Part shown: positions 164 through 63,278 of the stretch, piece by piece | How the letters are laid out: the number at the start of each line of letters is the position of its first letter | Position numbering within the stretch: position 1 is the first letter of the stretch | Source of the DNA: a virus | Lineage: Duplodnaviria > Heunggongvirae > Uroviricota > Caudoviricetes | Virus record (IMG/VR): IMGVR_UViG_3300035210_000190 | Direction: 5' to 3' (one strand) | Length of the DNA stretch: 64,000 nucleotides | Translations under genes and position numbers: made by a program | The notes under the pieces: model-generated | Seen by the model: only the letters and a program-made list of their open reading frames with translations | The model's database searches: none | Told to the model about the DNA's origin: nothing

Positions 164-1405
164 ATGTCAAATTTTGTTAAGCAGGCTCTTACATTGGTTG
201 ATAAATCTATCAAGGATCTTGACCTTCCGGTTTTTGAAATTGGTTTAGGTGCCACAAAACCAAAAAATCCTGTGATTCTTCATGCCAATGATCAATGTAT
301 TAAGTCCAACATGAAAGATCAAACCATTTACATTTTGACGCATAATGATATTCATATCGTTGATGACCTTTTGAGTTTAACACCCTATTTGAAGAATAAA
401 ATTCAGCGAGTTGGTCAATTTACTTCTGGAATGTATGGCGAAAAATCTCTTTTTAATCAGCCATCACATAAAGTTGTCCTTTTTTCAAATAAAGACATGA
501 TTGAACTTACCATTATTGGCACAACACTTAAATTTTTATTGAGTGCAGACAATATTAATATAAAATCTAACTTAGTCTGTGAATTTGGAGATTTCCCCTT
601 TTCTGATGTGTCTAGTCTTCATCGCATTATTGATGAATGCCTTGATAAACTTGTTGCAGATGTCCTGACAATTACTGGCTTCCCTAACTCAACGGAAACC
701 TCACTAGAAGTTTTAGATTTTCTAAACAAATCAGCAGTTGAATTGCTGTTACCATCACTTGTTAACAGTCGTTGTTCTTTTGTTAAGCCTAGCGAATACC
801 TTGACGCCTTGAAAATTGACTGGCCTGATTTTGTAGATATCAGAATGAAAGACGGCAAAAATAAAAATATTGATGACAATTTTTTCCCATGTGTGTTCAA
901 GGATGACGAACAATTAATATTTATCAGCACATTTTCTCAATTAATTAAGGATAAAAAATCGCACCACAAGTTCGAACAGCTAGTTGGATTAATGTCTTTT
1001 TACAGTTCTTTACTGGACAGGCCACTTAGTTTCCAAACCAATTTTTTTGGTGTTCGGAAGCCTACGTTTTTTGCAAACAAATCATGTGAACATGCTTTTT
1101 ATTCGTTTACTCTTTCTGACCTAACGCTTTCGGTGGGTCATAATATTGTGAGTGGTGAATTTAATGATGGAATTGCTGTTTATGATGTTAAAGAAGACAA
1201 TGAAACTTACAACTATAGTTTCAACTTTACAGTAGGTAAAAAGAAAGATTATGGAACGACAGTTGAACATTTAACCAATGATCTTGATTATGTGTATAAC
1301 TTTGTATTAGAAGCTATAAAAAAACATATTAATCAGAGCATTAGTAATGTTGATGGAGTCATTAATAAAGAACACATTGAAGTCTTTAAAATGTTAACTT
1401 TTTAA
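164..1405 (+). CDS. hypothetical protein, member 1 of tandem 415-aa paralog triplet
   Basis: long ORF; shared N-term and C-term motifs (DLDYVYN...I..HL.VFKML) with next two ORFs. Confidence 0.7.
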   Translation: MSNFVKQALTLVDKSIKDLDLPVFEIGLGATKPKNPVILHANDQCIKSNMKDQTIYILTHNDIHIVDDLLSLTPYLKNKIQRVGQFTSGMYGEKSLFNQPSHKVVLFSNKDMIELTIIGTTLKFLLSADNINIKSNLVCEFGDFPFSDVSSLHRIIDECLDKLVADVLTITGFPNSTETSLEVLDFLNKSAVELLLPSLVNSRCSFVKPSEYLDALKIDWPDFVDIRMKDGKNKNIDDNFFPCVFKDDEQLIFISTFSQLIKDKKSHHKFEQLVGLMSFYSSLLDRPLSFQTNFFGVRKPTFFANKSCEHAFYSFTLSDLTLSVGHNIVSGEFNDGIAVYDVKEDNETYNYSFNFTVGKKKDYGTTVEHLTNDLDYVYNFVLEAIKKHINQSISNVDGVINKEHIEVFKMLTF

Positions 1406-1449
1406 TATTATTGATAACTAACAAAAAAATCTTGAAGGGTATTTTCAAT

Positions 1450-2667
1450 ATGAACGATAATTTAAAAAGATTAGAAGCACTTATTCAATCATTTACGGTT
1501 GATAAAAACATTCCCATGATTAATATTCGTGAAAAAAATTGTTCTATTAATGGTGAAAACCAATGTTCTTTTGCGACAATAAAAGATCAGGATATTTATT
1601 TTATTGCACATGATGATGTAGACATTTTAGAAAAATATTTAAATTTAAGTGTACAGACTATTCAAAAAATAGAACAACTTAGGCAGTTTGCATTTGATAT
1701 TTATGAAAAAACTAATGAATGTCTTTTTAAACGATCAAAGATTAGACTTTTTCATAATAACACAATAGAATTTGCTATACTTGGCTTAGGTCGTTCAGGA
1801 TTAGTTGTCAATCTAACTGATAATATATTGACTGTTTCTCTTGTGGATATTTACAAAGAAACATCAGTTGAATTCATGTCTTTTGATGACATTGACACTG
1901 TATTGTATACGGCAATGGATTCTTTAACTGCTATGCTTATCAATCAAATTGGATTTGAAGGGAATGACCCACTTTCAGAAGATATTCTTAAATTTATCAA
2001 TAAATCTAAAGAACAACTGTTAGCTGATTATTTTAGTGTATTGCCCTTTAATTATATCGATCCCTCTCAATTGATTAAAGGTAGTTGCAATGATTTAAAC
2101 TATGATATTGAATCCATTAAACTAACAAGTGATAATGCTAGAATTCCATATCATATGATAAATATATTATCAAATGCCATTAAAAAGATTATTCCACGAA
2201 AAGAAGACAGTTATAAAATGAGTCAGCTTATTAGTTTAATGAACTTTTATTATAATCTAATAAATATTAGTCCAGAAAATAATGCTTCTAATATTTCATT
2301 TAAATGTTCAGAAAAGGCTTATATTGGTAAAAATAGTGAACTTGATAATATTTATTATTCATTTCATATTGGTTCAAAACTATCTCTTTATGTTGGTTAT
2401 AATTTAAAACATCATAATGATTATTACGTACCTATTTTAGATGCTAATGCTCCTGAACATGGCACTTATTATAAATTTACAACATCTATCAATAATAAAA
2501 AATCTGTAGATTCATATAAAATTTATGAAACTTATACAGATGATCTTGACTATGTTTACACCACTGTTTTAAACGAAATTAAAAGTGAAATAAATGAAAA
2601 AATTAACAATATTGGCGACACCATTACATCTAGACACCTTGATGTTTACAGGATGCTTGTGGTATAA
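1450..2667 (+). CDS. hypothetical protein, member 2 of paralog triplet (alt start 1411)
   Basis: paralogous to 164-1405 and 2710-3957; start chosen by alignment to paralogs. Confidence 0.7.
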   Translation: MNDNLKRLEALIQSFTVDKNIPMINIREKNCSINGENQCSFATIKDQDIYFIAHDDVDILEKYLNLSVQTIQKIEQLRQFAFDIYEKTNECLFKRSKIRLFHNNTIEFAILGLGRSGLVVNLTDNILTVSLVDIYKETSVEFMSFDDIDTVLYTAMDSLTAMLINQIGFEGNDPLSEDILKFINKSKEQLLADYFSVLPFNYIDPSQLIKGSCNDLNYDIESIKLTSDNARIPYHMINILSNAIKKIIPRKEDSYKMSQLISLMNFYYNLINISPENNASNISFKCSEKAYIGKNSELDNIYYSFHIGSKLSLYVGYNLKHHNDYYVPILDANAPEHGTYYKFTTSINNKKSVDSYKIYETYTDDLDYVYTTVLNEIKSEINEKINNIGDTITSRHLDVYRMLVV

Positions 2668-2709
2668 TGCTCAATCTATTATTTATCCAAAATTTGAGTT
2701 GAGTTTATT

Positions 2710-3957
2710 ATGATTATAAGTGAACGTATCAATGAATTAAGAGCAAACATTACATCATTTGTTTTGGAAAAGAACATTCCAATATTTAACACAAAACAAG
2801 GTTCTGGTCAATCTCTTGATGGTCAAAATCAGTGCTTTTTGGCCGAAATGAATACGATGGATGTGTATTTAATTGCACATGAAGATTTAAATATTGTTGA
2901 AAGATTCTTAAATCTAAATGATGAAACCATGAATAAGATAAACAAAATCAGGACATTTTGCTTTGGTTTTTATGCTAGTAGTCATCATGTGGGCAGTCAT
3001 AAACGTTTAAAAGTTAAACTCATTAATGGCAAAGGGATTGAGTTTTCAATCATTGGTGCTGGATTACCACCTTTTATCATTGATTTAAAAGATTATGAAA
3101 TCGTTGTTTCAGTTATGACGCAAAAACATTCTTCAACTGTGGTTTATTCTGGTGCTGATAATCTTGAAGATAAATTAAATTCAGCACTCGATTTAATAAT
3201 CCCTAATATGTTGAATGAATTAGGATTTTTTGATTGCACAGAAAATTCAAAAGAAGTTATTGATTTTATGAACAAGTCAACTGATGACCTGTTAGTTGAA
3301 CATTTTTCTGGATCAACTTTTAACTATATTAATAAAAATGCCTTACTTTTGAGTGCCTGCTCTGATTTGAATTTAAACTTTGATGATTTGCTTAATTACA
3401 ATAAAGATAATAATAATATTGCTCAACATCTGAAAATACCTCCTAACATGATATCTGTTTTTTCCAAAGTAATTAATAAATTAACACAATCCCCCGGAAG
3501 TGATAAAAAAATTAATCAACTCATTAGTTTGGTTTCTTTTTATAATTATTTAACATCTACTAATAGTGAATGCTCTATTACATTTAAAGCATTTTCAAAA
3601 ATTAGTTTGGTGCCTTCTTCAACTCTTGAATTTGATTATTGCTATTTTAATTTTTCAGATATTCTAAATATTACTTTGGGTCATCAATTGAAGCCTAGTT
3701 ATGAATACAATGGTATTTATGAGCACATAATTGATCAAGAAAATGAAAATGGTTATCTTTATAATTTTTTAATTGATATCGAACATAAAGACCCTAAGCC
3801 GGGTGATAAATTTATTAAATATTTCACCAATGATATTGATTATATCTATAATGTTCTTTTGATGGAGATTAAAAAATTAATTAATAAAACGATCTCTAAC
3901 ACAGAAGATGTTATCACATCAAGACAGCTTGAAGTTTTTAAAATGGCGACTGTTTAA
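2710..3957 (+). CDS. hypothetical protein, member 3 of paralog triplet
   Basis: paralogy; RBS. Confidence 0.7.
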   Translation: MIISERINELRANITSFVLEKNIPIFNTKQGSGQSLDGQNQCFLAEMNTMDVYLIAHEDLNIVERFLNLNDETMNKINKIRTFCFGFYASSHHVGSHKRLKVKLINGKGIEFSIIGAGLPPFIIDLKDYEIVVSVMTQKHSSTVVYSGADNLEDKLNSALDLIIPNMLNELGFFDCTENSKEVIDFMNKSTDDLLVEHFSGSTFNYINKNALLLSACSDLNLNFDDLLNYNKDNNNIAQHLKIPPNMISVFSKVINKLTQSPGSDKKINQLISLVSFYNYLTSTNSECSITFKAFSKISLVPSSTLEFDYCYFNFSDILNITLGHQLKPSYEYNGIYEHIIDQENENGYLYNFLIDIEHKDPKPGDKFIKYFTNDIDYIYNVLLMEIKKLINKTISNTEDVITSRQLEVFKMATV

Positions 3958-7414: not shown

Positions 7415-8002
7415 ATGACTATGACGGCTATTGAACTTCGCAAAGACCTACTTATTTGGGTGGATCTTGAAACGACTGGCTTAGATATTGCTGACAAGTT
7501 GTCGGGTGCTCAGTATCACAAAATCCTTGAAGTCGGTATTCATATTACCGATTCGAAATTCAATATCATTGATGAAGGCTTTGAAGTGGTTATTCATCAT
7601 GACGTTGAAGAAGCCAAAGCACTGGCTAATGATTACGTCCGTAACATGCACATCACCAGTGGGTTATGGGAGCGTGTGGATGCCTCTCCTGTTTCATTGG
7701 CCGAAGCCGAGAAAATGATCTTGGCGTATATCGATCAGTTCAATATTGCCCCCGGTTCTAGCCCTATTTGTGGTAACAGTGTTTCGCTGGATCGCAACTT
7801 TATCATGGCCCAAATGCCAACCTTTGCCAGCATCTTGCATTACCGCATCATTGATGTAAGCACTCTCAAAGAAATCGTTTGGCGTGTAAAACCAGAAGTA
7901 GGCATGATGGTTAAGAAGCAAGAGAAACACCGTGGACTTGAAGATATTAAAGAGTCTATTGCCGAATACAAAATCTATGAAGAGTTCTTTTTTGTTAAGT
8001 AA
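7415..8002 (+). CDS. orn: oligoribonuclease (Orn) homolog, DEDDh 3'-5' exonuclease
   Basis: motifs LIWVDLETTGLD, SPICGNSVSLDRNFI, HYRIIDVSTLKEI, HRGLEDIKESIAEYKIY closely match bacterial Orn. Confidence 0.85.
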   Translation: MTMTAIELRKDLLIWVDLETTGLDIADKLSGAQYHKILEVGIHITDSKFNIIDEGFEVVIHHDVEEAKALANDYVRNMHITSGLWERVDASPVSLAEAEKMILAYIDQFNIAPGSSPICGNSVSLDRNFIMAQMPTFASILHYRIIDVSTLKEIVWRVKPEVGMMVKKQEKHRGLEDIKESIAEYKIYEEFFFVK

Positions 8003-9239: not shown

Positions 9240-9313
9240 GGCTGTTTGTAGTTCAGTCGGCAGAACTCCGTCGAAAAACGGTAGTCGTGGGTTCGAATCC
9301 CATCATACAGCCT
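9240..9313 (+). tRNA. tRNA-like gene with atypical anticodon arm (4-bp stem, 6-nt loop CGAAAA); identity undetermined
   Basis: acceptor stem, D-arm GTTC/GAAC, canonical T-arm GTGGGTTCGAATCCCAT; co-transcribed with basic peptide gene; terminator at 9320-9350. Confidence 0.5.
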
Positions 9314-21760: not shown

Positions 21761-21894
21761 GTGGATGTAAACCTAAAGGGGCTTAGGCTCCTTTTTTCAT
21801 TTTTCCGTAATATAAGACAGTTTTTGTTGATAGTTTTGTATGGTTGGTGTATAATCAGGTTTCTTTCTTATAAACACATTTTTTGGAGTTTTAC

Positions 21895-22489: not shown

Positions 22490-22954
22490 ATGAACTTACA
22501 ACTTAGACACCGTTGTCTTCAATTTAACACGGAAGGGACTATTGTTTACGACCCCGACCGTGGCACCATGAAGAAAAACATTGAACATTGGGCTGTTATC
22601 ACGATAGAACCGGATATCGCGGCTTACTATCGCCATCAGTTTTATCAACGGTATGGCATAGAGTTGGATAAGCCTAACTGGGATGTTCATTGCTCAGTGC
22701 TGAAAGGATATACCAATACCGACACGTCTAAGCCGTGGGGTTGGCTCGACCAACAACCTGTTGAACTGCATTACACCCATGAATTGTTCTGGAATGATTC
22801 TCATGTATGGATAAACTGTTATTCAGCCGAGTTTTTTAAAATTCGTGAATACTATAACGTGTTGGGGACAGACCAAGGACATATTACTATTGGGAAGTTT
22901 AAGCATTATCAAAAAGACAGGCTAAAACCCTTCAAAAACTACGTTCAAGATTGA
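22490..22954 (+). CDS. 2H phosphoesterase superfamily protein (LigT/cyclic phosphodiesterase-like; possible Acb1-like anti-CBASS nuclease)
   Basis: two H-x-S/T-x motifs (VHCSVL ~res 66, GHITIG ~res 133) with spacing typical of 2H fold; 154 aa. Confidence 0.5.
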   Translation: MNLQLRHRCLQFNTEGTIVYDPDRGTMKKNIEHWAVITIEPDIAAYYRHQFYQRYGIELDKPNWDVHCSVLKGYTNTDTSKPWGWLDQQPVELHYTHELFWNDSHVWINCYSAEFFKIREYYNVLGTDQGHITIGKFKHYQKDRLKPFKNYVQD

Positions 22955-27530: not shown

Positions 27531-27635
27531 GACCGCTTAGGCGGTTTTTTTCATTTTAATGAAAAATGTTGTTGTCAAAAATGATATTTTCCATTATAAT
27601 CTGTTCATCAAAACCCATCATCAAGGATTAAAAAA

Positions 27636-28837: not shown

Positions 28838-29416
28838 ATGAATGAGCATTCAGTTTTTAATACGAAAGATGAACAATTGGCTCAAGAAGTCGGTATTGCG
28901 GTGGCTCGCAGTATGTTCAAAGACCACCAAAATACTAAATATCAGTCCTTTTTGTTCTCTTGGCAGACACATGGCACTGTCGTGGCCGAAATGGCGTCAG
29001 GTAAGCTATTTATCTACTTTCGTGCTAATCCAGTGAACTATGCCGCTTTGCAAGCCATCACAGCCACGGCAGCACTCACTGAATGGAACATTTTGGTCAG
29101 TAATTCACCGGAATCGTTGCCGGTTGCTGTTTTTACTGTTGACGATATCGTGGAGCAATCCAAACAGTATTTTCATCGTTTTTACGAAATCCTTGAAATT
29201 GAATTCGCACACAATTTCACAAAAGAACATCCAGACGCTGCAGAACTTGACTGGAAAGTCGCTTTCAATCATTTGCACACACCGCTTTATGTCTATAACA
29301 AGGGTATTGAAAAACTCGAAAGTATTGTTCGTGAAAAAGGCTTTTCAGTAGAAGAAGCTGACGTTATTTTCCAAAATGTTCGACCTTACTTAAAACGTCT
29401 TTACATTGAAGATTGA
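28838..29416 (+). CDS. hypothetical protein, tandem paralog pair F (1 of 2)
   Basis: shared N-term (DE.LAQ.VGI..AR..F.D) and C-term (LHTP.YVYNK) with next ORF. Confidence 0.65.
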   Translation: MNEHSVFNTKDEQLAQEVGIAVARSMFKDHQNTKYQSFLFSWQTHGTVVAEMASGKLFIYFRANPVNYAALQAITATAALTEWNILVSNSPESLPVAVFTVDDIVEQSKQYFHRFYEILEIEFAHNFTKEHPDAAELDWKVAFNHLHTPLYVYNKGIEKLESIVREKGFSVEEADVIFQNVRPYLKRLYIED

Positions 29417-29423
29417 GGTTATT

Positions 29424-30023
29424 ATGAAAAAACATCAATTATTCCAAACAGAAGATGAAATATTAGCTCAAAATGTTGGTATTTCTTATGCTCGTGAATT
29501 GTTTCAAGATTCGCTTGATGTTGGACAACAAGACGTTTCTTTTTCTTGGGGTACTTTTGGAGACTCGGCAGTTCGTATTGCTGTTGTAAGCTTGGCTCTC
29601 TATTTTCCAGAGACAAAAACAAATATTATCGAACTCAAAAAAATTACAGAGATTTCATTTATCACAGAATGCGAAATTCTTGTTGAAAATGCTGGTTCTA
29701 CACTGGTAATTGGTTGTCACTCTGTTGATGAAATTCGTAATTATTTAACTAAAAATTTTGATGGCTTTTATGATAAATTGAAGAGCCGTTTCAAGCGTGA
29801 TTTTCGCCGTTCTAATCCTGATGTAGTCGATTTGGATGTTCATTGGAAAATTGCTTTTACCACTTTACATACGCCGACATATGTTTATAACAAAGCATTT
29901 GATTATCTGGAACGATACTTAAATAATAAAGGTCTTGAAAGCACTGTAATTCAAGAACTGCATATTGAGTTTACTCAATACTTGAAAAATCTTTTTCTTG
30001 GTGCAGATTTAAAAATTATTTAA
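29424..30023 (+). CDS. hypothetical protein, tandem paralog pair F (2 of 2)
   Basis: paralogy; RBS GAGGT. Confidence 0.65.
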   Translation: MKKHQLFQTEDEILAQNVGISYARELFQDSLDVGQQDVSFSWGTFGDSAVRIAVVSLALYFPETKTNIIELKKITEISFITECEILVENAGSTLVIGCHSVDEIRNYLTKNFDGFYDKLKSRFKRDFRRSNPDVVDLDVHWKIAFTTLHTPTYVYNKAFDYLERYLNNKGLESTVIQELHIEFTQYLKNLFLGADLKII

Positions 30024-30084: not shown

Positions 30085-30522
30085 ATGGGTATTGGTAAAT
30101 ATTCTCCAACAGTCAGCACTTCATACCGTAAAGATCAAAATTGGTATGAAAAGAATGGCGGTGGTTTTGGCAATGGTAAAAACCCTGAATCTGATTACGA
30201 TGATGATGGCTTCGATGCATACGGCTATAACGCTGATGATCGTGATCGAGCTGGTCATCATGAGAATGACTATCCTGCTAGTTTTCATTGGGATGATGGG
30301 GTTGAATATTATCCACTGCATGAATCTGTTCAATCTGAATGGGGTGGTCGTTGTATTCTTGCTATGCGTAAAGCCCGTGAAGAAGCTGCTGCTAATCCAG
30401 AAATGCAAGAAGCCTTCCGTCAACTTGCAGAAGTTCAAGACATTCTCCGAAAAGCTGCTGAGATTGAGCGTGGCCTGAAAGCCGATATTACTAAGGCTTA
30501 TCCTGACTTGCTGCTCGATTAA
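30085..30522 (+). CDS. hypothetical Gly/Asp-rich protein, tandem paralog pair G (1 of 2)
   Basis: N-term MG(I/V)GKYSPTVS.SY..D..W(Y/F)EKNGGGFGNG shared with 30632. Confidence 0.65.
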   Translation: MGIGKYSPTVSTSYRKDQNWYEKNGGGFGNGKNPESDYDDDGFDAYGYNADDRDRAGHHENDYPASFHWDDGVEYYPLHESVQSEWGGRCILAMRKAREEAAANPEMQEAFRQLAEVQDILRKAAEIERGLKADITKAYPDLLLD

Positions 30523-30631
30523 TTTTGTCAATACGATTAAAGACCTAGCTTCGGCTAGGTTTTTTGTTTTAATGGTTGCTTATTTTTCAGTTTTTTGATA
30601 GTATAGTCTTCTAATTAAAGAGGATACACAC

Positions 30632-31204
30632 ATGGGCGTTGGAAAATATTCCCCAACTGTTAGCCGCTCTTACAGTCAAGATAAAGACTGGTTTGAGAAA
30701 AATGGTGGTGGTTTTGGCAATGGGTTTATGCCCGAATCTCAATTCGATAATCAGGGTTATGATTCGTATGGCTATTCAGGCTATACTGATCGTGACCGGG
30801 CGGGTTATACCGAAAGTGATTACCTGAATGACTCTCATGGTGATAACCAGCGTGGTATCTATGATCGTGTGCGTGATTTGTGGGATCATTACAATGTGCC
30901 CACCATTCTCGATATGGCGATGATTGTTGCTACAAAAGTTGAAAACGACAATCTTTTCGCCTTTAACCATGCGAAAATGGTAACTGTCATCAATATCTAC
31001 GAAGCCGCCAACACAGCCAAACACCAATTGGATCAAACTTTCAAAATGGGTACTGGTGCCGAAGGTAACGAAATCTATCAAAAAGAGTTCAACGAATTTT
31101 TCAAGGAAGTGGCTAAAAACATTGCTGAACACAGTGTTTTCTTGGAAGAGTTTTATGACAAATTCTTGACTGATTTTGTCCAGCTTCAAAAAGCTTTTAA
31201 ATAA
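30632..31204 (+). CDS. hypothetical Gly/Asp-rich protein, tandem paralog pair G (2 of 2)
   Basis: paralogy, duplicated promoter. Confidence 0.65.
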   Translation: MGVGKYSPTVSRSYSQDKDWFEKNGGGFGNGFMPESQFDNQGYDSYGYSGYTDRDRAGYTESDYLNDSHGDNQRGIYDRVRDLWDHYNVPTILDMAMIVATKVENDNLFAFNHAKMVTVINIYEAANTAKHQLDQTFKMGTGAEGNEIYQKEFNEFFKEVAKNIAEHSVFLEEFYDKFLTDFVQLQKAFK

Positions 31205-33705: not shown

Positions 33706-33832
33706 TCTCAACAAGGTTATTAATTAGCAGTCCTTCGGGGCTGCTTTTTATTTTAAAAATATCATTTTTGACTTGCCTTCACTGCTGTATTTCGATATAA
33801 TAGCTCAACTCAAACCAGTAGAGATTTGAATC

Positions 33833-34954
33833 ATGTCCAGCATCTTCCCCCGTATTGAAACCCTTGATGATATGATTCCTCATATCAAAGACCGTGCCTA
33901 TATTTCTCTTAACAAACAGGATAACGGTGCCGACATCGTTTGCTACAACATCAGCAACGGTGACTCTTTCAACACTCCGGTTGAAAAGGAAGCTCGCGGT
34001 ATTACCTTTGACGACAACGGTAAAATACTGTCGCGTCCATTGCACAAATTCTTCAACTTGGCAGAGCGTGCAGAAGTCCAGCCAGCCGTTTTGGATTGGA
34101 ACACTATGGTTGCCGGGTTTGATAAAATGGATGGCTCCATGATTACCACAGGGCTGTTCAAAGGCGAATTCTTTGCTAAGTCCAAGAAGTCTTTCAAATC
34201 GGATGTGGCTGTTTCGGCAGAAGGCTTTGTGTCTCGTAACCAGAAATACTACGAGTTCACCAAATATTGCTCTCAGGCCCAACTGACGCCAATTTTTGAA
34301 TTCACTTCGCCAAAGCATCGTATCGTTTTGCGTTATGACGAAGACAACATGACATTGCTTCATGTTCGTCACAACATCACAGGCGATTACTTAATGCCTG
34401 CTGAAAAAGACCAACTGGCGTTGTTGTTTGATATTCCTGTTAACAAGCCACTGTTTGGTGAAGAATTTGATTTGGCTTCCCTGTTGAAGTCGCTGAACAC
34501 GGTTGAAGGGATTGAAGGCTATGTTATTCAATTCGTTAACGGTAACATGATCAAAATCAAAACCAAATGGTATATGAATCTCCATCATGCGGTTAGCTTT
34601 GTTCGTGAACGTGATATTGCTCGTTTGGTGGTCGAAGAAAAACTTGATGATTACATTGCTTATTTGTCGCTAAACTCGCCAACGGCTGATTTGAGTGAAA
34701 TTTATCGTATCAATGACGCTATCAAAGCTTCGATTGAAGCGTTGTCGAAAGAGGTTGATGATATTGCTGCTGCATTCCAAGGTGTTGACGTGAAAACTGC
34801 AGCAATCCAACTCAAAGGCCACAAACACTTTGGTTTTGTTATGGGGGCAATTCGTGGTCACAAAAACGACTACCTGTATCACTACTCTAAAAACCATCTG
34901 GTGGATTGGTCGTTGGACCAAATTGAGCTTGGCGACTTGTCCGCTCCCGTTTAA
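33833..34954 (+). CDS. RNA ligase, Rnl1 family (divergent paralog A)
   Basis: KFFNL, nucleotidyl-lysine motif DKMDGSM, EGYVIQFVNGNMIKIKTKWYMNLH matching T4 Rnl1 motifs. Confidence 0.8.
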   Translation: MSSIFPRIETLDDMIPHIKDRAYISLNKQDNGADIVCYNISNGDSFNTPVEKEARGITFDDNGKILSRPLHKFFNLAERAEVQPAVLDWNTMVAGFDKMDGSMITTGLFKGEFFAKSKKSFKSDVAVSAEGFVSRNQKYYEFTKYCSQAQLTPIFEFTSPKHRIVLRYDEDNMTLLHVRHNITGDYLMPAEKDQLALLFDIPVNKPLFGEEFDLASLLKSLNTVEGIEGYVIQFVNGNMIKIKTKWYMNLHHAVSFVRERDIARLVVEEKLDDYIAYLSLNSPTADLSEIYRINDAIKASIEALSKEVDDIAAAFQGVDVKTAAIQLKGHKHFGFVMGAIRGHKNDYLYHYSKNHLVDWSLDQIELGDLSAPV

Positions 34955-35072
34955 CTCAGCATGAAGAAAGAAGCCCTGCATTTGCAGGGCTTTTTTATAA
35001 AAATCTATTTTTTGGTTGTTAATTTTTAGTTTTTGATGTATAATCAATTTATTCAAAACAGAGGTTTATTCG

Positions 35073-35456
35073 ATGAAAACTATTCGTGAAAAAGCAGCCG
35101 ATGTAGATATTACAAACACAGATTTTTTGAATTTCATAGCACGGTTCCGTAAAGGTGACACGTCTGTTGTTTGTTGGTCTTTGGTTGAAGATGGTTCTTC
35201 TGGTATCGAGGAAACTATTGCTTGCCCACCCAACTTTCAACTGGTTGCCATGATGTTTCCAGACGTTTCGGCGGTGGTTATGATGGAACTGGCTCAAAAA
35301 CTGCGTAGCTTTTTCAACTCTTGGTGGATAACCGAAGAACCCGAAGCGTATTCAGAGCCGCCACGGAACTATTCGCGTTTTTCAGCAACCATTGAATACA
35401 CTCGCCTTTATGTCTTCTATCTTGAACAGAAAAAAGCGATGGACGCAAAAGCGTAA
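35073..35456 (+). CDS. hypothetical protein
   Basis: promoter TGATGTATAAT; RBS AGAGG. Confidence 0.6.
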   Translation: MKTIREKAADVDITNTDFLNFIARFRKGDTSVVCWSLVEDGSSGIEETIACPPNFQLVAMMFPDVSAVVMMELAQKLRSFFNSWWITEEPEAYSEPPRNYSRFSATIEYTRLYVFYLEQKKAMDAKA

Positions 35457-35547
35457 AGATCACAATAAAAGGCAGTCTTTGACTGTCTTTTTCGTTGTTT
35501 GAAAACAATATTTCATGTATAATCCACTGATTACCACAGAGGTTTCT

Positions 35548-35868
35548 ATGACTAAATTTCGAATTACCTATGATCCAACAAATGGTGTTGCAACCCCAGA
35601 TGGATTGTGTGTCGGTCTGGTGGATGAACTGATTTCTTTGCGTCATCTTGGCGATGTAAGCTACACGACTTCGACGGCCAGTGTCATCACAGCATTCCGC
35701 TTAGCCGCTGCTGAAAAGAAAATCAGTGTTGACGATGTTGTCTTTGCCTTTGATGATGCCGATATCACAATGGATAGCAAATTTGAACTGTCTGCTTGGC
35801 CGAAAGGTTTTTGTGATGTTCAAGGCGACATGCTCAATAAAATTATGCAAGCACGAAGAAAAGTTTGA
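35548..35868 (+). CDS. hypothetical protein, paralog of 55253-55564
   Basis: ITYDPTNGVATPDGL / LVYDPIHGVPTSDGL and GFCD motifs shared. Confidence 0.6.
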   Translation: MTKFRITYDPTNGVATPDGLCVGLVDELISLRHLGDVSYTTSTASVITAFRLAAAEKKISVDDVVFAFDDADITMDSKFELSAWPKGFCDVQGDMLNKIMQARRKV

Positions 35869-35912
35869 ATTAAAAATCAGTTTTTGATATAATAGATTCA
35901 GACAATTTAATC

Positions 35913-37046
35913 ATGGAGATTCACATGACTTATCAACAAGAACTGTATGCCCAACTGATGAACCTGTTGGTTACTAATCCGGGGTCTTTTAAATACCGTG
36001 ATGAAATCTCGGCGGTAGACGGTGGGACTTACCGTGTCTTCAACTATGACATTCCAAAGCACTCCGAATTCAAACTTCCGGGTGCCAAGGATTGCCGTGG
36101 AGTCATGTTCTACATGGGCGGTTCTGAGCCAATGCTGGTGGCATTGCCAATGCAGAAATTCTTTTCCTTGGGCGAAACCCCTGAAACGCAAAAGGTGAAG
36201 CCAGAAGAAGCCGACCACGCTTATCTGAAACCCGATGGCTCGTTGCTCACCAGCTATATTTCTCCGATCAATAATACTCTTTACTACAAGAGTAAAAAGA
36301 AGCCTACGTTTGCTGATTACGGCCTTGTTGAACAGTCTATCAGTCCAGAATTGCACGCAGACGTTGAACGGCTGACCCGCACAGGTGTTTCGGTTGACTT
36401 GGAACTGACCACGCCGAAAAACCGTGTTTTCATCGAATACACTACCTACGAAGTTCATGTGTTGAAAGCCCGCGACATGAACACAGGGGCTTATGTGGAC
36501 ATTCGTTCGGCAGAATTTGCCGCAGAATATCCGGTTATTGCGGCCCATTTGGTGAAACGTATCCCTATCAATGAACTCAACGTTAATGACCCTGAAATTG
36601 AGGGTTATGTGGTTGAATTTGGCCCTGACATGTATAAGGTCAAGACCATTCCTTACCTGAAAATGTCGGCAGTGGTTAACATTCAGGATCGTTCGAAGGA
36701 ACGTCAGGTTATTTATGAAGCAACTCTTCATGAAATTCTGGATGAAATTCGTTCGCTGTATCATTACCGGACACACAGCGACAACTTCCCACTGGCTGAA
36801 ATTCTGGCTCGCTTGGATGAAGTCGAAGACTACGCCCGTAAAAGCTACCATTACCTTGTTCGCACGGTTGATAGCTTCCACGATGAGCATAAAGGTTTGG
36901 AACGTGGCGATTACGCTCGTAAAGCCAAAGAAGTGGCTCCATTGCTTCTGTCGGTGTTGATGAGCAAGTTTTCGGGTGACGAGATTGATTACAAACAAGC
37001 CGCTATCATGGTGTTTGCTCGTAAACAAGTGCCTATCCCCGAGTAA
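35913..37046 (+). CDS. rnlA: RNA ligase 1 (T4 Rnl1-like; likely start 35925)
   Basis: TYRVFNY, DCRGVMFYM, QKFFSL, LKPDGSLL (lysine motif I), EGYVVEF...YKVKT match T4 Rnl1. Confidence 0.85.
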   Translation: MEIHMTYQQELYAQLMNLLVTNPGSFKYRDEISAVDGGTYRVFNYDIPKHSEFKLPGAKDCRGVMFYMGGSEPMLVALPMQKFFSLGETPETQKVKPEEADHAYLKPDGSLLTSYISPINNTLYYKSKKKPTFADYGLVEQSISPELHADVERLTRTGVSVDLELTTPKNRVFIEYTTYEVHVLKARDMNTGAYVDIRSAEFAAEYPVIAAHLVKRIPINELNVNDPEIEGYVVEFGPDMYKVKTIPYLKMSAVVNIQDRSKERQVIYEATLHEILDEIRSLYHYRTHSDNFPLAEILARLDEVEDYARKSYHYLVRTVDSFHDEHKGLERGDYARKAKEVAPLLLSVLMSKFSGDEIDYKQAAIMVFARKQVPIPE

Positions 37047-37174
37047 GTGACGGTTTAATAAAACGGCCCTAGTCTTCTAGGGCTTTTTTGTTTCTTTTTA
37101 ATAATCATCTTTACTAATATTCCATTTTTTGATATACTTCTTCTGTTGAAACACACTATTTTCAGGAGACTTAC

Positions 37175-40013: not shown

Positions 40014-40886
40014 ATGTTCCATACCAACGGAAACCGTCGCCCTAATGCTGTTGCTTCGATTGCGATCATTCATCATGGTAAGACCTTCAATGATGTGGTT
40101 TATTTCGTAAACACCTATTTCCGTGATATTAACAATAGTCGTGCTTCGATGTTGTTGGACAAAAAGGTTTTCGCACAGGCACTATCTAAATTGAACACTG
40201 TCAACCGTGTGGAATGGAAGTCGGTTGAAGACACCTACAAAAGTGAAGGTAACTACACGTTGTTCAACATCACCAAAACAGCTTCCAAAAATGAAGCTCT
40301 GTTGAATGTCTATATCATTCCGAAAGAGATGTTGTTGGAACCGCCAAAGCAAAAAAATACCAACTTTGAAGCAAGTATGAATCCTGATTTCATCGTTCCA
40401 GAAAAACGTATCAGCCAAGGCCCGGTATTCAGTGTTTTTACGACCGAAGACATTGACGGCGTTCATTACTTCCAAAGCCAGACAGAAGCCTTGTATTACG
40501 TCAAAGGCGACCAATCTGCACTGTCTACTGTGGATGTTGTTCGTATCGGTGACGAATACTTTGAAGTGAAAGCCAAGCTGCCAGCGTTCAAAGCTGTCAA
40601 TGTGAACGAACACAAGCTATTTGCTTTCCAGCCACACAAGGCACCCAAAGGACAAACCATGTTCTCGGCCAGTGTTGAGCGGGATGACCGTAATGTTTTC
40701 AGCCATGACGTGGATAGCTTTGAAGATGGTCTTTACAAAGTGCAAGGTAGCTTGACTGGTGCTGTTTTGGTCGAAACTGTGACTAGTAAAATCAAAGGTA
40801 GCACTCGTAAAGCTTACTTCTTGAAATATGGTTCGGATGAATACAAAAAGGTAGTGGCTGAAATGTCAATGGTTACGACTGTTTAA
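40014..40886 (+). CDS. hypothetical protein
   Basis: promoter TGATATAAT; RBS GAGGA. Confidence 0.65.
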   Translation: MFHTNGNRRPNAVASIAIIHHGKTFNDVVYFVNTYFRDINNSRASMLLDKKVFAQALSKLNTVNRVEWKSVEDTYKSEGNYTLFNITKTASKNEALLNVYIIPKEMLLEPPKQKNTNFEASMNPDFIVPEKRISQGPVFSVFTTEDIDGVHYFQSQTEALYYVKGDQSALSTVDVVRIGDEYFEVKAKLPAFKAVNVNEHKLFAFQPHKAPKGQTMFSASVERDDRNVFSHDVDSFEDGLYKVQGSLTGAVLVETVTSKIKGSTRKAYFLKYGSDEYKKVVAEMSMVTTV

Positions 40887-44391: not shown

Positions 44392-45048
44392 ATGGTGACC
44401 TTGATGAATCTGACCTATGAAGAACTTCAAACTTTAACCGACACCTATAAAGCGGATAAAGCTAAGTTGGAAGAAAAGTTTGTTGTCATCCCATTACGAC
44501 CCGAATTTCATGACGCCATCACTAAAAAGAAGGTTACACTTGTTGAGTTTCTTCATGCAATGAATGACACTTATATGCCCGAAGATGTAAAGGAAGCTCA
44601 TCAAGAAGCTATCAAAGCTACGCTTAAATTTCAAAACCTTATGAATGAAAAAATTTATATCGCACAAGTTAACAACTTGAATGTTAATGCAGAAATTCGG
44701 CAATTGAATACTGCTTATCTTGCGGCTACGGATATTCCTGAGCGTAAACTTAAATCCGTGCTGTTGATTAATAAAAAGAATATTGCTGTCGAAGACCATC
44801 CCGTGCTTATAGAAATTTACAAAACCTTGGGATTAACTCATTACACTAACGGCACTCAGCGTGACATTGTGTATTTTAACCCAGACCAGCATGATTTAAA
44901 TGGCCTGAAAAATATGTTAATCCTGAATGCACCCTCACTGTTTCAACACAACTACCCTGATTTTTGGGATTGGATAAAAGAAGAACCCGTAGACGCCAAC
45001 CCATTGACAGGTTGCATGTCGATGGTAATTCATGCTCGAAAATCTTAA
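44392..45048 (+). CDS. hypothetical protein, paralog family D (tandem with 45160)
   Basis: ~40% identity to next ORF incl. LLINKK.I..ED...L...Y..LG.T.Y.....RD.VY(F/Y)NPD; duplicated terminator GGCATTCCAGTGATGG.GTGCC. Confidence 0.7.
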   Translation: MVTLMNLTYEELQTLTDTYKADKAKLEEKFVVIPLRPEFHDAITKKKVTLVEFLHAMNDTYMPEDVKEAHQEAIKATLKFQNLMNEKIYIAQVNNLNVNAEIRQLNTAYLAATDIPERKLKSVLLINKKNIAVEDHPVLIEIYKTLGLTHYTNGTQRDIVYFNPDQHDLNGLKNMLILNAPSLFQHNYPDFWDWIKEEPVDANPLTGCMSMVIHARKS

Positions 45049-45159
45049 TTTTACAAAATATGGGCATTCCATATGGAGTGCCTTTTTCTTTTTAAGAATG
45101 TTGATTTTGTAGATTTTCAATGCTATAATTTCTCATTATTTTAGTAATCCAACCTACCT

Positions 45160-45819
45160 ATGGTGATAACAATGACATTAACTGTTGAAGACATTAAAAA
45201 ACTGACGGCTACTTTTGAAGTAGACAAAGCTGCACTGCAAGCTAAAATCCAGCGTGCTCCTGATTCTCCAGAGATTTGGTATGAAGAGCATGAAGACAGT
45301 CGTTCACTTGCTGATATTGTTCGTGGGTTGAGCACTGACTCTATGCCACCAGAAGCGTTTGCTATGCATGAAAAACTCATTGCTGATCTTGAATGTTTTG
45401 GCAATATCATTAATAAAAAAATTTCCGAAGTGTCGGATCACAACGCTCGGATTTATAGCCAAATTGAAAAACTGAACAAAGATTTCTTGGCAGCTATCCG
45501 CGTCCCTGAGAGCGATTTGGGAGCCGCTTTGCTCATCAACAAGAAAATCATCGATCCAGAAGATTATGACAAACTGGTGGCTGTCTACCGTGAGCTTGGC
45601 TTCACGAATTACAGTATCAAGGCTCAGCGTGACACCGTTTATTACAACCCTGATAAATGGCACTTCAATACGCTGAAAGATGAGATCTTTAATACGCTTT
45701 CGAAAGACTTGCGTAAAAAATATCCGACATTCCTGAATTTTATTCAGAACAGTGTTGTCAACACTAACCCAACTTATGGTAGTGGTCTTATTCATGTGAT
45801 GGAAGCTCGCCAAGAGTAA
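45160..45819 (+). CDS. hypothetical protein, paralog family D
   Basis: paralogy. Confidence 0.7.
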   Translation: MVITMTLTVEDIKKLTATFEVDKAALQAKIQRAPDSPEIWYEEHEDSRSLADIVRGLSTDSMPPEAFAMHEKLIADLECFGNIINKKISEVSDHNARIYSQIEKLNKDFLAAIRVPESDLGAALLINKKIIDPEDYDKLVAVYRELGFTNYSIKAQRDTVYYNPDKWHFNTLKDEIFNTLSKDLRKKYPTFLNFIQNSVVNTNPTYGSGLIHVMEARQE

Positions 45820-46214: not shown

Positions 46215-46355
46215 TGTTAAGGTTCCATTAAGTAGTTTTGGATACCTATTATAATACAATTGACCATAAAAAACAATCTTTAAAAAAACGAGTAAATCTT
46301 GAAAAAATACAGTTATTCTGTTATAATTAGGTCATTACTTACAGAGGTTAATCTC

Positions 46356-47276: not shown

Positions 47277-47771
47277 ATGAAATCATTCAAAAAAGACGAA
47301 AAAATTCCCGGCTGTGGTTATTTCTTTGTGCGTGAACGTGGTGTTGATGGTATTCATGCTTTCGAAAAGCACCGTCGCCTTCGTGTCTTTTTTCATAAAG
47401 GTTTATCTTGTGTAACGCCCAACTGCCAGAATATCGGAAATCGGTTGATTTTCTCCCGTGATAGCCAAGGTGGTGGACATTGGGACTTGTTTACTGACGA
47501 TATGGTTTTGATGACCATTGACCATATTACTGCCAAGAAAAATGGCGGTAGCAATGAACTTGAAAACCTTCAGCCTATGTGCTGCCACTGTAATACTACG
47601 AAAGGTCATCAGGTTATCACGCTGGATGAACTGGCCGTCCAAATGCTCGATTTTGAGGCAAGAATGGATGCTAAAAAGCAAAAAAAACGTGAACGTCGAG
47701 ATCCTGTTGTTATTGCAAGGAAAAGAGAAGAACGGAAGCAAAAACGCGAAATGGTTGCCACAGCAGCTTAA
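47277..47771 (+). CDS. HNH endonuclease (free-standing homing-type)
   Basis: DHITAKKNGGSNELENLQPMCCHCNTTKGH canonical HNH motif; basic C-terminal tail. Confidence 0.8.
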   Translation: MKSFKKDEKIPGCGYFFVRERGVDGIHAFEKHRRLRVFFHKGLSCVTPNCQNIGNRLIFSRDSQGGGHWDLFTDDMVLMTIDHITAKKNGGSNELENLQPMCCHCNTTKGHQVITLDELAVQMLDFEARMDAKKQKKRERRDPVVIARKREERKQKREMVATAA

Positions 47772-48665: not shown

Positions 48666-48735
48666 GTCATAGGAAGTTGTTGCCAAAACATGGTTTTTTG
48701 GTTATAATAGCTTATCAATCAGGAGTTACATCTAC

Positions 48736-48997: not shown

Positions 48998-49600
48998 ATG
49001 ACCATCCCAGTATTCAATATTAAAAAAATCATTTCTCATGTTCACCGTTCCTTTATGCAAGTGGAACAGGTACAAGGCTCCTATGAGAGTATTTTTGGTG
49101 GCACCAAAGAAATCGATCATTATGTGCTCACTAAACCCTCAGCTATCTGCCTGACCTTGTATGACAAAGCGACTGATGAATTCGTTTTCGTGAAGCAATT
49201 CCGCATGGGTGCCTTCAAACATCCTGACGAAACTGACGCTTGGGTTATTGAACCTGTTGCCGGTCATATCGACCCGAAAGAAGACCCACTGCTGGCCGCT
49301 CAGCGTGAAGGTGAAGAAGAAACCAATATGTTGATCAAGTTGGAAGATATTCGTTACCTGTGCAAAGGATACACCAGTGCTGGTATCTCGAACGAAATGC
49401 ACCACACCTACTTTGCCTACGTGAACTCTTCGAGCTTCGACATGAACCGTTCGCATGGTATTGATGATGAAGACATTCAAATCATCAAAATCAGTCGTGA
49501 AGACACCATGAAGATGATTGAAAGTGGCGAAATTCGCACTTGCAGTGCTATCATCGGGGTTTCACTGGCAATTGCAAAAGGTTTGGTGCCAGCACAATAA
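48998..49600 (+). CDS. Nudix hydrolase
   Basis: Nudix box GHIDPKEDPLLAAQREGEEETNM (Gx5Ex7REUxEE). Confidence 0.7.
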   Translation: MTIPVFNIKKIISHVHRSFMQVEQVQGSYESIFGGTKEIDHYVLTKPSAICLTLYDKATDEFVFVKQFRMGAFKHPDETDAWVIEPVAGHIDPKEDPLLAAQREGEEETNMLIKLEDIRYLCKGYTSAGISNEMHHTYFAYVNSSSFDMNRSHGIDDEDIQIIKISREDTMKMIESGEIRTCSAIIGVSLAIAKGLVPAQ

Positions 49601-51938: not shown

Positions 51939-52010
51939 GGGCCGGTGGTGTTTAACGGGAACAAGTGTCCTTAACCGGATGAGTTCTGGGTTCGAGTCCC
52001 AGTCGGTCCT
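51939..52010 (+). tRNA. tRNA-like gene, atypical anticodon arm (5-bp stem with two G-U pairs, 6-nt loop UUAACC); monocistronic with own promoter and terminator
   Basis: acceptor stem GGGCCGG/TCGGTCC, D-arm TGTT/AACA, canonical T-arm CTGGGTTCGAGTCCCAG; terminator 52029-52053. Confidence 0.5.
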
Positions 52011-52149
52011 CCTAATTTAAAATACAGATAAACCGCCTTCTTGGCGGTTTTTTGTTTTAACACTTTTGAATAATAATCATTTTTCACTACCAGTATTATA
52101 GACAACAAAAAGCCCGCTTCTGCGGGCCTTTTATATTACTGTTGGAAAA

Positions 52150-60172: not shown

Positions 60173-60643
60173 ATGATTTCTATCGAACTTTATCCTAATC
60201 CAGCCGAAAACCCAGAAATTGTAAAACTGGTGTTTCAATGCATGCGGAATAAATACACTGCAGATTCAGACCCTGCTGGATTGACCTTTAAAGAAGTTCG
60301 GTCGATTATCACCACTCACCCTGTTACTGTCATCAAAGACGGTGATAGAATTGTTGGGGTTGTTAATGTCAATGAAGTTCACTTTTCGCTTAGAAAAAGA
60401 TTGGGTTTAGAGCATGAATATTTCAATCTTGGCATGATTTATATTGCGAAAAAAGAACGTGGTAATGGCTATGCCAGTCAGGTGGTTGAACATTTCCTTA
60501 AAATTCACAAAAACCTTATTTACATTGTTCATGAAAGTAATAAGGCCAGCAATAAAATTGCCGTAAAATATTTCAAGTTCTTTAAACAGCAAGGCTCTTT
60601 CAGAGCGACTGAACCCTATAATGTTTACAAGATAGAACAATAA
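60173..60643 (+). CDS. GNAT-family N-acetyltransferase
   Basis: motif A RGNGYASQ in IYIAKKERGNGYASQVVEHF. Confidence 0.5.
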   Translation: MISIELYPNPAENPEIVKLVFQCMRNKYTADSDPAGLTFKEVRSIITTHPVTVIKDGDRIVGVVNVNEVHFSLRKRLGLEHEYFNLGMIYIAKKERGNGYASQVVEHFLKIHKNLIYIVHESNKASNKIAVKYFKFFKQQGSFRATEPYNVYKIEQ

Positions 60644-62924: not shown

Positions 62925-63278
62925 ATGACTAAGAAAAAAGTAAAAGAAATCGAAGTCGATGAAAAATCACCAGATTTTATTGCCTTTGTGAAGCAGTTTA
63001 ACTACCGAATGAGCAAGGATAAGAAATATTTCTACATGAAAGTTACCAGTTCTTCCATTGCTGATGAAGCTGTTGCGAAACCGCCACATTATGAAATCAC
63101 GCTGGTTTTGTTTCCTGATAGTTCGTTGGCGAAGTTTTTGGAAATTGCTGAAGAAATTTATAACAAAGGTCAGGCTTGTATAGATGAAGTTCAAGACTAC
63201 TATGATACTCACTATCCAGAGTACAACTTTACTATTAAGTTTGTTGACTTGTATCGAATTTATTTAAAGCACATTTAA
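62925..63278 (+). CDS. hypothetical protein
   Basis: RBS AGGAGG. Confidence 0.6.
   Translation: MTKKKVKEIEVDEKSPDFIAFVKQFNYRMSKDKKYFYMKVTSSSIADEAVAKPPHYEITLVLFPDSSLAKFLEIAEEIYNKGQACIDEVQDYYDTHYPEYNFTIKFVDLYRIYLKHI

Follow-up and report, generated by a model that had tools for sequence, protein, structure and literature searches.

Two neighbouring Rnl1-family RNA ligase genes of different clades in a Caudoviricetes sequence

The two ligase genes and their family

The viral sequence IMGVR_UViG_3300035210_000190, analysed here as one stretch of 64,000 nucleotides that is referred to as the window, encodes two Rnl1-family ATP-dependent RNA ligases of 373 residues each, rnl_a at 33833-34954 and rnl_b at 35925-37046, which lie on the plus strand and, as a preliminary description of the locus had stated, 1 kb apart. 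The window stems from a giant, uncultured phage-like genome and is virus-like in content, its 103 open reading frames (ORFs) of at least 60 amino acids matching only 18 Pfam families. Within the pair, rnl_a appears to be the resident ligase of the lineage, and rnl_b an accessory module from the T4 side of the family. The start of rnl_b had been placed at the ATG at 35913, which has no ribosome-binding site; the likelier start is the ATG 12 nt later at 35925, with a GGAG 4 nt before it and a fit to the N-terminus of T4 Rnl1, and gene callers on two other contigs likewise select the equivalent codon.

Both proteins exceed the gathering cut-off of 28.3 bits in the profile search that had been suggested for them (Pfam PF09511, RNA_lig_T4_1), rnl_a with 96.2 bits (E 3.5e-27) and rnl_b narrowly with 32.5 bits. 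Both also match phrog_562, which is labelled 'RNA ligase and tail fiber protein attachment catalyst' and filed under the PHROG category 'tail', with 243.7 bits over residues 4-356 of rnl_a and 152.4 bits over residues 5-356 of rnl_b. Among solved structures, the T4 Rnl1 entries 2c5u, 5tt6 and 9do4 are the sole matches of either ligase, with rnl_a aligned to 2c5u over residues 35-276 (E 2.2e-27) and rnl_b to the T4 structure over residues 8-355 (E 5.5e-33). The signature motifs reported earlier are all present, as KFFNL and K98-MDGS in rnl_a, KFFSL and K102-PDGS in rnl_b, and EGYV and KxK in both. On the NCBIfam model TIGR02308, an equivalog of T4 RnlA with a cut-off of 242.25 bits, rnl_a scores 153.2 and rnl_b 142.5 bits, compared with 634.5 bits for T4 itself, and since both fall below the cut-off, a T4-like tRNA specificity should not be assumed for either. 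The proposal that rnl_b is close to T4 Rnl1 and rnl_a divergent is only partly borne out: rnl_b does join T4 in the tree described below, but both ligases are 26-30% identical to the T4 protein, and it is rnl_a that scores higher on the Pfam, PHROG and NCBIfam profiles.

The identity between the two ligases is 26% by BLASTP, or 22% when counted in the trimmed alignment of the family. A neighbour-joining tree was built from 90 sequences, with bootstraps computed on a thinned set. Its two clades, separated in 60 of 60 bootstraps, hold on one side T4 Rnl1, Xanthomonas phage Xoo-sp13, P0046 and the rnl_b family, and on the other rnl_a together with Ralstonia phage RsoM2USA, Burkholderia phage BcepSauron, Stenotrophomonas phage Moby and Agrobacterium phage Atu_ph07. 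The pair had been called paralogous, a term that does not apply in the sense of a duplication within the lineage; judged by the phylogeny, rnl_a and rnl_b are not a recent duplication and belong to two anciently diverged Rnl1 clades. The a family is large, with 786 clusters at E <= 1e-5 and distant members in many bacterial genomes, and the b family is small, with 46 clusters among 5.8 billion proteins, found almost exclusively on giant phage-like contigs. A megablast of 5 kb against 50,697 phage records gave no match. The closest cultured relative of rnl_a is that of the Ralstonia phage RsoM2USA (41% identity), and a search of 185,579 GTDB species genomes found no close relatives of rnl_a, only proteins of at most 41% identity, mostly from Alphaproteobacteria.

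The residues required for catalysis are retained in both ligases. In a 10-sequence alignment that includes T4 Rnl1 (from NC_000866) and eight relatives, the invariant positions are, in T4 numbering, R54, K75, F76/F77, K99, D101, G102, S103, K117, K119, E159, R166, E227, G228, K240, K242 and Y246. Nearly all of these, F77 and K119 excepted, are at least 90% conserved in 59 a-type and 43 b-type sequences, and the essential residues are invariant over the 43 members of the rnl_b family. Motifs I (the KxDGS lysine), III (E159), IV (E227-G228) and V (K240, K242) of the covalent nucleotidyltransferases are accordingly found in both proteins. The T4 residues R54, K75 and F76 correspond to R55, K72 and F73 in rnl_a and to R58, K78 and F79 in rnl_b; in T4 Rnl1, R54 and K75 touch the γ-phosphate of ATP and are essential, and F76 touches the adenine (PMC6379707).

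Both genes are also under strong purifying selection. Against L034, the closest relative with a reliable synonymous divergence (dS 0.33-0.49), rnl_a has a ratio of nonsynonymous to synonymous substitution rates (dN/dS) of 0.10 and rnl_b one of 0.06, and over four or five relatives the ratio stays at 0.04-0.10, with rnl_b alone at 0.04-0.06; at a dS of ~1.5, which is near synonymous saturation, the ratio of both ligases is 0.04-0.09. Taking both genes and both domains of each, dN/dS is 0.04-0.17. The C-domain of rnl_a is the fastest-evolving part, at two to three times the rate of the catalytic part, and the C-domain of rnl_b is constrained as strongly as its catalytic half; no positive selection was detected on the C-domains, with omega at most 0.17 throughout. 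The suspicion that one copy might be a pseudo-ligase thus fails, since all residues essential in T4 are kept, neither gene has frameshifts or stops, and selection against change is strong. To judge from these features, both ligases are most likely catalytically competent.

The overall architecture appears to be the same in the two families, as their profiles align end to end in hhalign (probability 100, E 1.7e-44, 349 columns). The two ligases resemble T4 Rnl1 (RnlA or gp63; PDB 2C5U, 5TT6, 9DO4) in length (373-374 residues), in what appears to be a two-domain layout of an adenylyltransferase with an Rnl1-specific N-subdomain and an all-helical C-domain, and in keeping every mutationally essential residue of the T4 protein. 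Unlike these features, the C-domain residues are not conserved with T4, except for D272. The same unevenness is seen between the families: of the 26 positions that are at least 90% conserved with an identical residue in both, 25 belong to the adenylyltransferase part, and the remaining one, T4 D272, is in the C-domain, where a further 11 positions are conserved in the b family only and three in the a family only. An all-helical C-domain related to that of T4 Rnl1 is what sets Rnl1 apart from Rnl4 and Rnl6. The profile of the T4 C-domain (PF20819, T4_Rnl1_C) matches rnl_b with 18.6 bits, below its cut-off of 27, and does not match rnl_a; the predicted model of rnl_a is all-helical from residue 245, and the TIGR02308 alignments extend to profile positions 336 and 350. 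In T4 Rnl1 the C-domain gives specificity for breaks in the tRNA anticodon loop, and the clades of RNA ligases are defined by their appended domains (PMC6379707). That the substrate-specificity part is where the two families share almost nothing fits a specialisation of the two ligases.

Presence of rnl_b among relatives and its transcription signals

A JGI contig and a Logan contig contain the sequence of the window itself. The ligase pair is found in L001/2 (contigs being denoted here by such numbers), L012-14, L034, L040 and L041. The order of rnl_a, the two intervening genes ORF 35073 and ORF 35548, and rnl_b is kept in L034, L040, L041 and L012-14, in which the identities of rnl_a and rnl_b are 94 and 95%, 85 and 92%, 80 and 89%, and 80 and 90%, respectively. 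In other relatives one type stands alone, by which is meant that the other was not seen within 6-10 kb on either side of the locus; genome-wide co-occurrence was resolved for one contig, Ga0247725_1000001, which carries an a-type gene at ~632 kb and, 194 kb away, a b-type gene at ~826 kb. An rnl_a without a neighbouring b-type is found in L003-L009, L035, L037 and L039. In L003-L009, L037 and L039, on contigs of up to 437 kb, it is 61-74% identical to that of the window, and a b-family scan of IMG/VR gave no match on the seven IMG/VR contigs L003-L009. Conversely, a b-type without a neighbouring a-type is found in other contexts in L015/L044 (498 kb), L017 and L020, and the b-type of L042 lies at another locus than the rnl_b of the window.

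The clearest case is L035, in which rnl_a is 88% identical to that of the window and rnl_b is absent, the homologue of ORF 35548 being followed directly by that of ORF 37175. The stretch missing there corresponds to positions ~35870-37120 of the window, exactly the promoter, coding sequence and terminator of rnl_b. An rnl_a type is present in every relative found. This pattern of presence and absence indicates that rnl_a is resident and that rnl_b is accessory and moving, gained or lost; rnl_b is a single-gene accessory module that sits next to rnl_a in one sub-clade, elsewhere in others, and is absent from at least one close relative. The preliminary description had allowed that the duplication might be ubiquitous and already annotated; searched by tblastn with either protein, no deposited phage genome shows two Rnl1 places, each record having one (1,684 and 1,567 records), so that the duplication is neither widespread nor annotated among them.

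A recent horizontal gain of rnl_b was considered and rejected, its G+C content, G+C content at third codon positions (GC3) and codon usage being within the range of the window and its dS against L012 the same as that of rnl_a. In L017 (9553-13659) and L042 (9539-9925) the b-type gene is directly preceded by a NUDIX hydrolase gene (72% identity between the two contigs), and in L017 and L018 a tyrosyl-tRNA synthetase gene lies within 1.2 kb after it, with a Gln/Glu-tRNA synthetase gene farther on in L017. A b-type Rnl1 that is 45% identical to rnl_b, annotated as two hypothetical plant proteins, is found in L063 (JAKNSL020003210.1; 1,160,939 bp, 37% G+C), deposited in the assembly of the fern Adiantum nelumboides, and this sequence most probably stems from contamination by a related giant phage-like replicon.

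The promoter and terminator calls at the locus are consensus matches, which are predictions and not evidence of transcription. Upstream of rnl_b, a sigma-70-like promoter with an extended -10 element (TTGAAT-17-TG-n-TATAAT) is predicted at 35865-35893 on the plus strand, and a terminator-like hairpin with a T-run follows the gene at 37065-37084, also on the plus strand. Sigma-70-like sites on the same strand are likewise predicted 32 nt upstream of rnl_a (TTGCCT-17-TATAAT, 33773-33801), behind the terminator hairpin of the preceding unit at 33726-33745, and 29 nt upstream of ORF 35073 (TTGTTA-17-TATAAT, 35016-35044), and a plus-strand -10 element of ORF 35548 lies at 35518-35523. All four genes of the locus thus have a -10 element 20-32 nt before the start, three of them within a full TTGnnn-17-TATAAT, and the promoter motif of rnl_b recurs upstream of rnl_a, ORF 35073 and ORF 37175 (repeat families D2, D5 and D12). 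G+C hairpins with a T-run stand behind rnl_a, ORF 35073 and rnl_b, and the terminator-like, G+C-rich one after rnl_a (34967-34996, inverted repeat I6) is listed by the terminator scan on the minus strand. Of 54 sites of such quality in the whole window, 29 end at most 80 nt upstream of a plus-strand start codon, compared with 12% expected from the area covered, which suggests that genes in this genome generally have a promoter each. Nearly every gene of the window has a TTGnnn-17-TATAAT 26-42 nt upstream of its start codon (for example at 21827-21855, 27572-27600, 46299-46327 and 48680-48708) and often a terminator hairpin behind it, so that the genome looks like a string of predicted single-gene transcription units.

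The two genes between the ligases are both on the plus strand. ORF 35073 (35073-35456) encodes an ORFan protein of 127 residues that is found together with rnl_b in the tandem clade and whose family comprises 10 representative clusters among 1.84 billion proteins, with homologues on contigs of 1.85 and 1.92 Mb and a second, diverged copy in the window at 62925-63278 (26% identity). It was considered as a healing enzyme or a cRec domain and rejected as either, having no profile matches and an AlphaFold2 (AF2) model (pLDDT 76) with no credible fold match. ORF 35548 (35548-35868) encodes a small conserved phage protein of 106 residues (phrog_12026, E 4.5e-14). An upstream ATG at 35515 falls inside the -10 box, an AGAGG ribosome-binding site precedes the ATG at 35548, and the gene caller on L002 likewise gives 106 residues; the homologue of this gene is kept in L035, which is without rnl_b.

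Predicted functions and alternative explanations

The conservation of the catalytic halves, together with C-domains that share almost nothing, suggests that the two enzymes probably seal different broken RNAs and are not redundant. The explanation that we favour, and hold to be moderately probable, is that of two active Rnl1 ligases with the same chemistry and different, non-redundant substrate-recognition modules, of which rnl_b is accessory. Judging from the conserved residues, a lysine, K98 in rnl_a and K102 in rnl_b, would be adenylylated from ATP, and the AMP would then be passed to a 5′-phosphate RNA end, followed by attack of the 3′-OH. The two ligases would act on distinct sets of broken RNAs, such as tRNAs that different host nucleases have cut, and the accessory rnl_b would be kept or lost according to need; breaks that leave a 2′,3′-cyclic phosphate and a 5′-OH would be made ligatable by enzymes encoded outside the 64 kb. 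Different substrates and a link to host anticodon nucleases are plausible inferences.

The genomic surroundings are looser than the preliminary description had suggested. It had placed the ligases in a region with tRNAs, Orn, a 2H phosphoesterase and Nudix, and an RNase_T-family exonuclease (7415-8002; the 'Orn' of that description) and a NUDIX protein (48998-49600), both assigned by Pfam, as well as tRNA-Leu and tRNA-Met genes at 58.9 and 59.2 kb, are indeed present in the window, but 12-26 kb away from the ligases, and the 2H phosphoesterase also claimed was not detected, none of the 103 ORFs matching a Pfam 2H family. The ORF at 22490-22954, which has HxS/HxT motifs, was considered for this role and rejected, with no Pfam match at E <= 1 and no PDB sequence match. 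Pfam and a tblastn search with T4 Pnkp (best E 0.69) both confirm that the window encodes no kinase/phosphatase partner, and tblastn searches of the 64-kb window for Pnkp, Rnl2, Macro, metallophosphoesterase, AlkB and an RlaP-like partner gave nothing better than E 0.6. In T4, rnlA and pseT are 1.4 kb apart and there is a single Rnl1; the window, unlike T4, has two and no adjacent or nearby Pnkp, and no Pnkp was found within 10 kb on either side of the ligases in close relatives. In the relatives L004-L009, L039 (1-5860) and L058 (3054-9932), the a-type Rnl1 lies inside an RNA-repair island with genes for an Rnl2-like ligase (PF09414 and PF21189), Macro, GNAT, a calcineurin-like metallophosphoesterase, an AlkB-like 2OG-Fe(II) oxygenase and DUF1643, and on unrelated viral contigs a T4-like Pnkp is found directly downstream of Rnl1 (L010) or ~2.4 kb upstream of it (L022).

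Several points weigh against two specialised, active ligases. The ligase activities and RNA targets are predicted, and the 64-kb window holds no Pnkp, 2H, HAD or metallophosphoesterase healing enzyme. The TIGR02308 scores below the cut-off mark both proteins as family members and not as demonstrable functional equivalents of T4 RnlA, and the promoter and terminator assignments that frame rnl_b as a unit are consensus matches only. Finally, the C-domain of rnl_a evolves two to three times faster than its catalytic part, and the divergence of the C-domains could be drift in a weakly constrained module and not a new specificity.

A tentative extension, possible but not the likelier view, is that rnl_b represents an uncharacterised Rnl1 sub-family acting as a self-contained mobile counter-defence cassette, in which its own constrained C-domain would reseal breaks that rnl_a cannot and the patchy gain and loss would track the host nucleases met; the candidate breaks would lie in another tRNA or another loop, or would be the ends produced by a nuclease that evades repair. 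It appears unlikely that the two ligases are instead redundant, sealing the same breaks with the second copy serving as dosage or insurance, for example against a host inhibitor of one of them. The identical catalytic residues of the two enzymes would be expected of such a back-up, the close relative L035 manages with rnl_a alone, and many phages related through rnl_b show only a b-type within 10 kb on either side, but the two proteins have ~22-26% identity and no common C-domain signature, Ga0247725_1000001 keeps both types 194 kb apart, and both genes have remained under strong purifying selection to a dS of ~1.5, a span over which pure redundancy is seldom stable. A division of the roles of T4 gp63, with one copy ligating RNA and the other mainly serving non-catalytic tail-fibre attachment, by which long fibres are joined to the baseplate, is suggested by the annotation of T4 rnlA as 'RNA ligase and tail fiber protein attachment catalyst', by the 'tail' category of phrog_562 and by the position of rnl_b on the T4 side of the tree. 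This we regard as quite improbable, for purifying selection acts on all the ligase active-site residues of both proteins, which an attachment-only role would not need; there are no tail genes nearby, both ligases have early-looking sigma-70-type promoters as their non-structural neighbours do, and the a-type lies within the RNA-repair islands of relatives.

Even less credence is given to a non-repair task of one ligase, such as maturation or circularisation of phage RNA or the processing of tRNA-like genes, with only the other countering host nucleases. The window does contain two tRNA-like genes with aberrant 6-nt anticodon loops beside two normal tRNAs, and its ligases are not linked to any healing enzyme there, but nothing points to expression or processing of the tRNA-like genes, their distances from the ligases are 24 and 15 kb, and the anticodon arm of the first of them (9242-9312) has no exact match in IMG/VR. 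A recent tandem duplication or a decaying pseudo-enzyme, to which the common strand, the spacing of 1 kb and the tandem paralogue pairs common elsewhere in the window might point, is effectively refuted by the placement of the ligases in separate clades in 60 of 60 bootstraps, by the intact motifs, by reading frames free of frameshifts and stops, and by a dN/dS of at most 0.10.

The existence of two non-redundant ligases in one genome would not be without precedent. Several RNA ligases per jumbo phage have been described and taken to be non-redundant, together with a reading of 'specialised roles' for them, XacN1 having three Rnl2 paralogues and BcepSauron also being among the multi-ligase jumbo phages (PMC7824862). 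The window shares with these arsenals the presence of more than one ATP-dependent RNA ligase in a giant phage, and in its relatives the a-type Rnl1 is accompanied by an Rnl2-like ligase, Macro, a metallophosphoesterase and AlkB. It differs from them in that both ligases are Rnl1, from two different Rnl1 clades, and in that rnl_b acts as a single-gene presence/absence module. In fungal and plant Trl1 (Rnl6 clade; PDB 6N0T), the C-domain of the ligase is of another kind, and kinase and cyclic-phosphodiesterase domains are fused to it (PMC6379707); unlike Trl1, the window ligases are stand-alone proteins with C-domains that align with the T4-type family, and have neither the Trl1 C-domain nor the fusion. 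The novelty is confined to the combination of two Rnl1 of separate clades and to rnl_b behaving like a module, and these features extend the multi-ligase RNA-repair kit of jumbo phages without constituting a new kind of system; as it stands, the pair is one more combination among known jumbo-phage multi-ligase repertoires. If the specificities of rnl_a and rnl_b do differ, they would form a natural matched pair in one genome, with the same catalytic core and different C-domains, which would allow substrate recognition by Rnl1 to be mapped and could reveal the RNA-cleaving host defences that giant phages encounter. In addition, a divergent Rnl1 whose C-domain is well conserved could find use as a ligation reagent that differs in sequence bias.

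Very large relatives and other features of the window

The size of some relatives is perhaps of more interest than the ligase pair itself. Positions 25000-47000 of the window are syntenic with L040 (Ga0308158_10000001, 1,859,102 bp) and L041 (677,834 bp), so that close relatives sit on contigs of 0.68-1.86 Mb, and both L042 and L058 lie on Ga0247725_1000001, which is 1,539,155 bp long. The largest known phage genome measures 735 kb according to a 2026 review (PMC13282480). Such contigs are either phage-like replicons of more than 1.5 Mb or chimeric or concatenated assemblies.

An ORF 3 kb downstream of rnl_b (40014-40886, 290 residues) matches the Cas_Csm6 HEPN profile at E 0.012 with 15.9 bits, below the cut-off of 23.4; if true, this match would matter, as it would put a HEPN RNase close to RNA ligases, but it is probably due to chance. 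The two tRNA-like genes of the window, at 9242-9312 and 51939-52012, have an anticodon loop of 6 nt, one base short. The former reads as a tRNA-Phe(GAA) without U33 in ARAGORN and scores 44 bits on the Rfam tRNA model with a gap in the anticodon arm, and the latter scores 24.8 bits, under the Rfam threshold; pseudogenes, decoys and tRNAs in need of processing are all possible identities for the two.

Tandem paralogy appears to be common in this genome, as seen in the adjacent pairs 28838/29424 (28838-30023), 30085/30632 (30085-31204) and 44392/45160 (44392-45819) and in the triplet 164/1450/2710 (164-3957), both members of a pair matching single genes in relatives and the members of the triplet being 23-27% identical. 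The window further encodes an HNH endonuclease (47277-47771) and a GNAT protein (60173-60643) and, as assigned by Pfam, a TnpB-like protein (OrfB_IS605 and Cas12f1-like_TNB), pentapeptide-repeat proteins and a DUF2807 adhesin-head-like protein.

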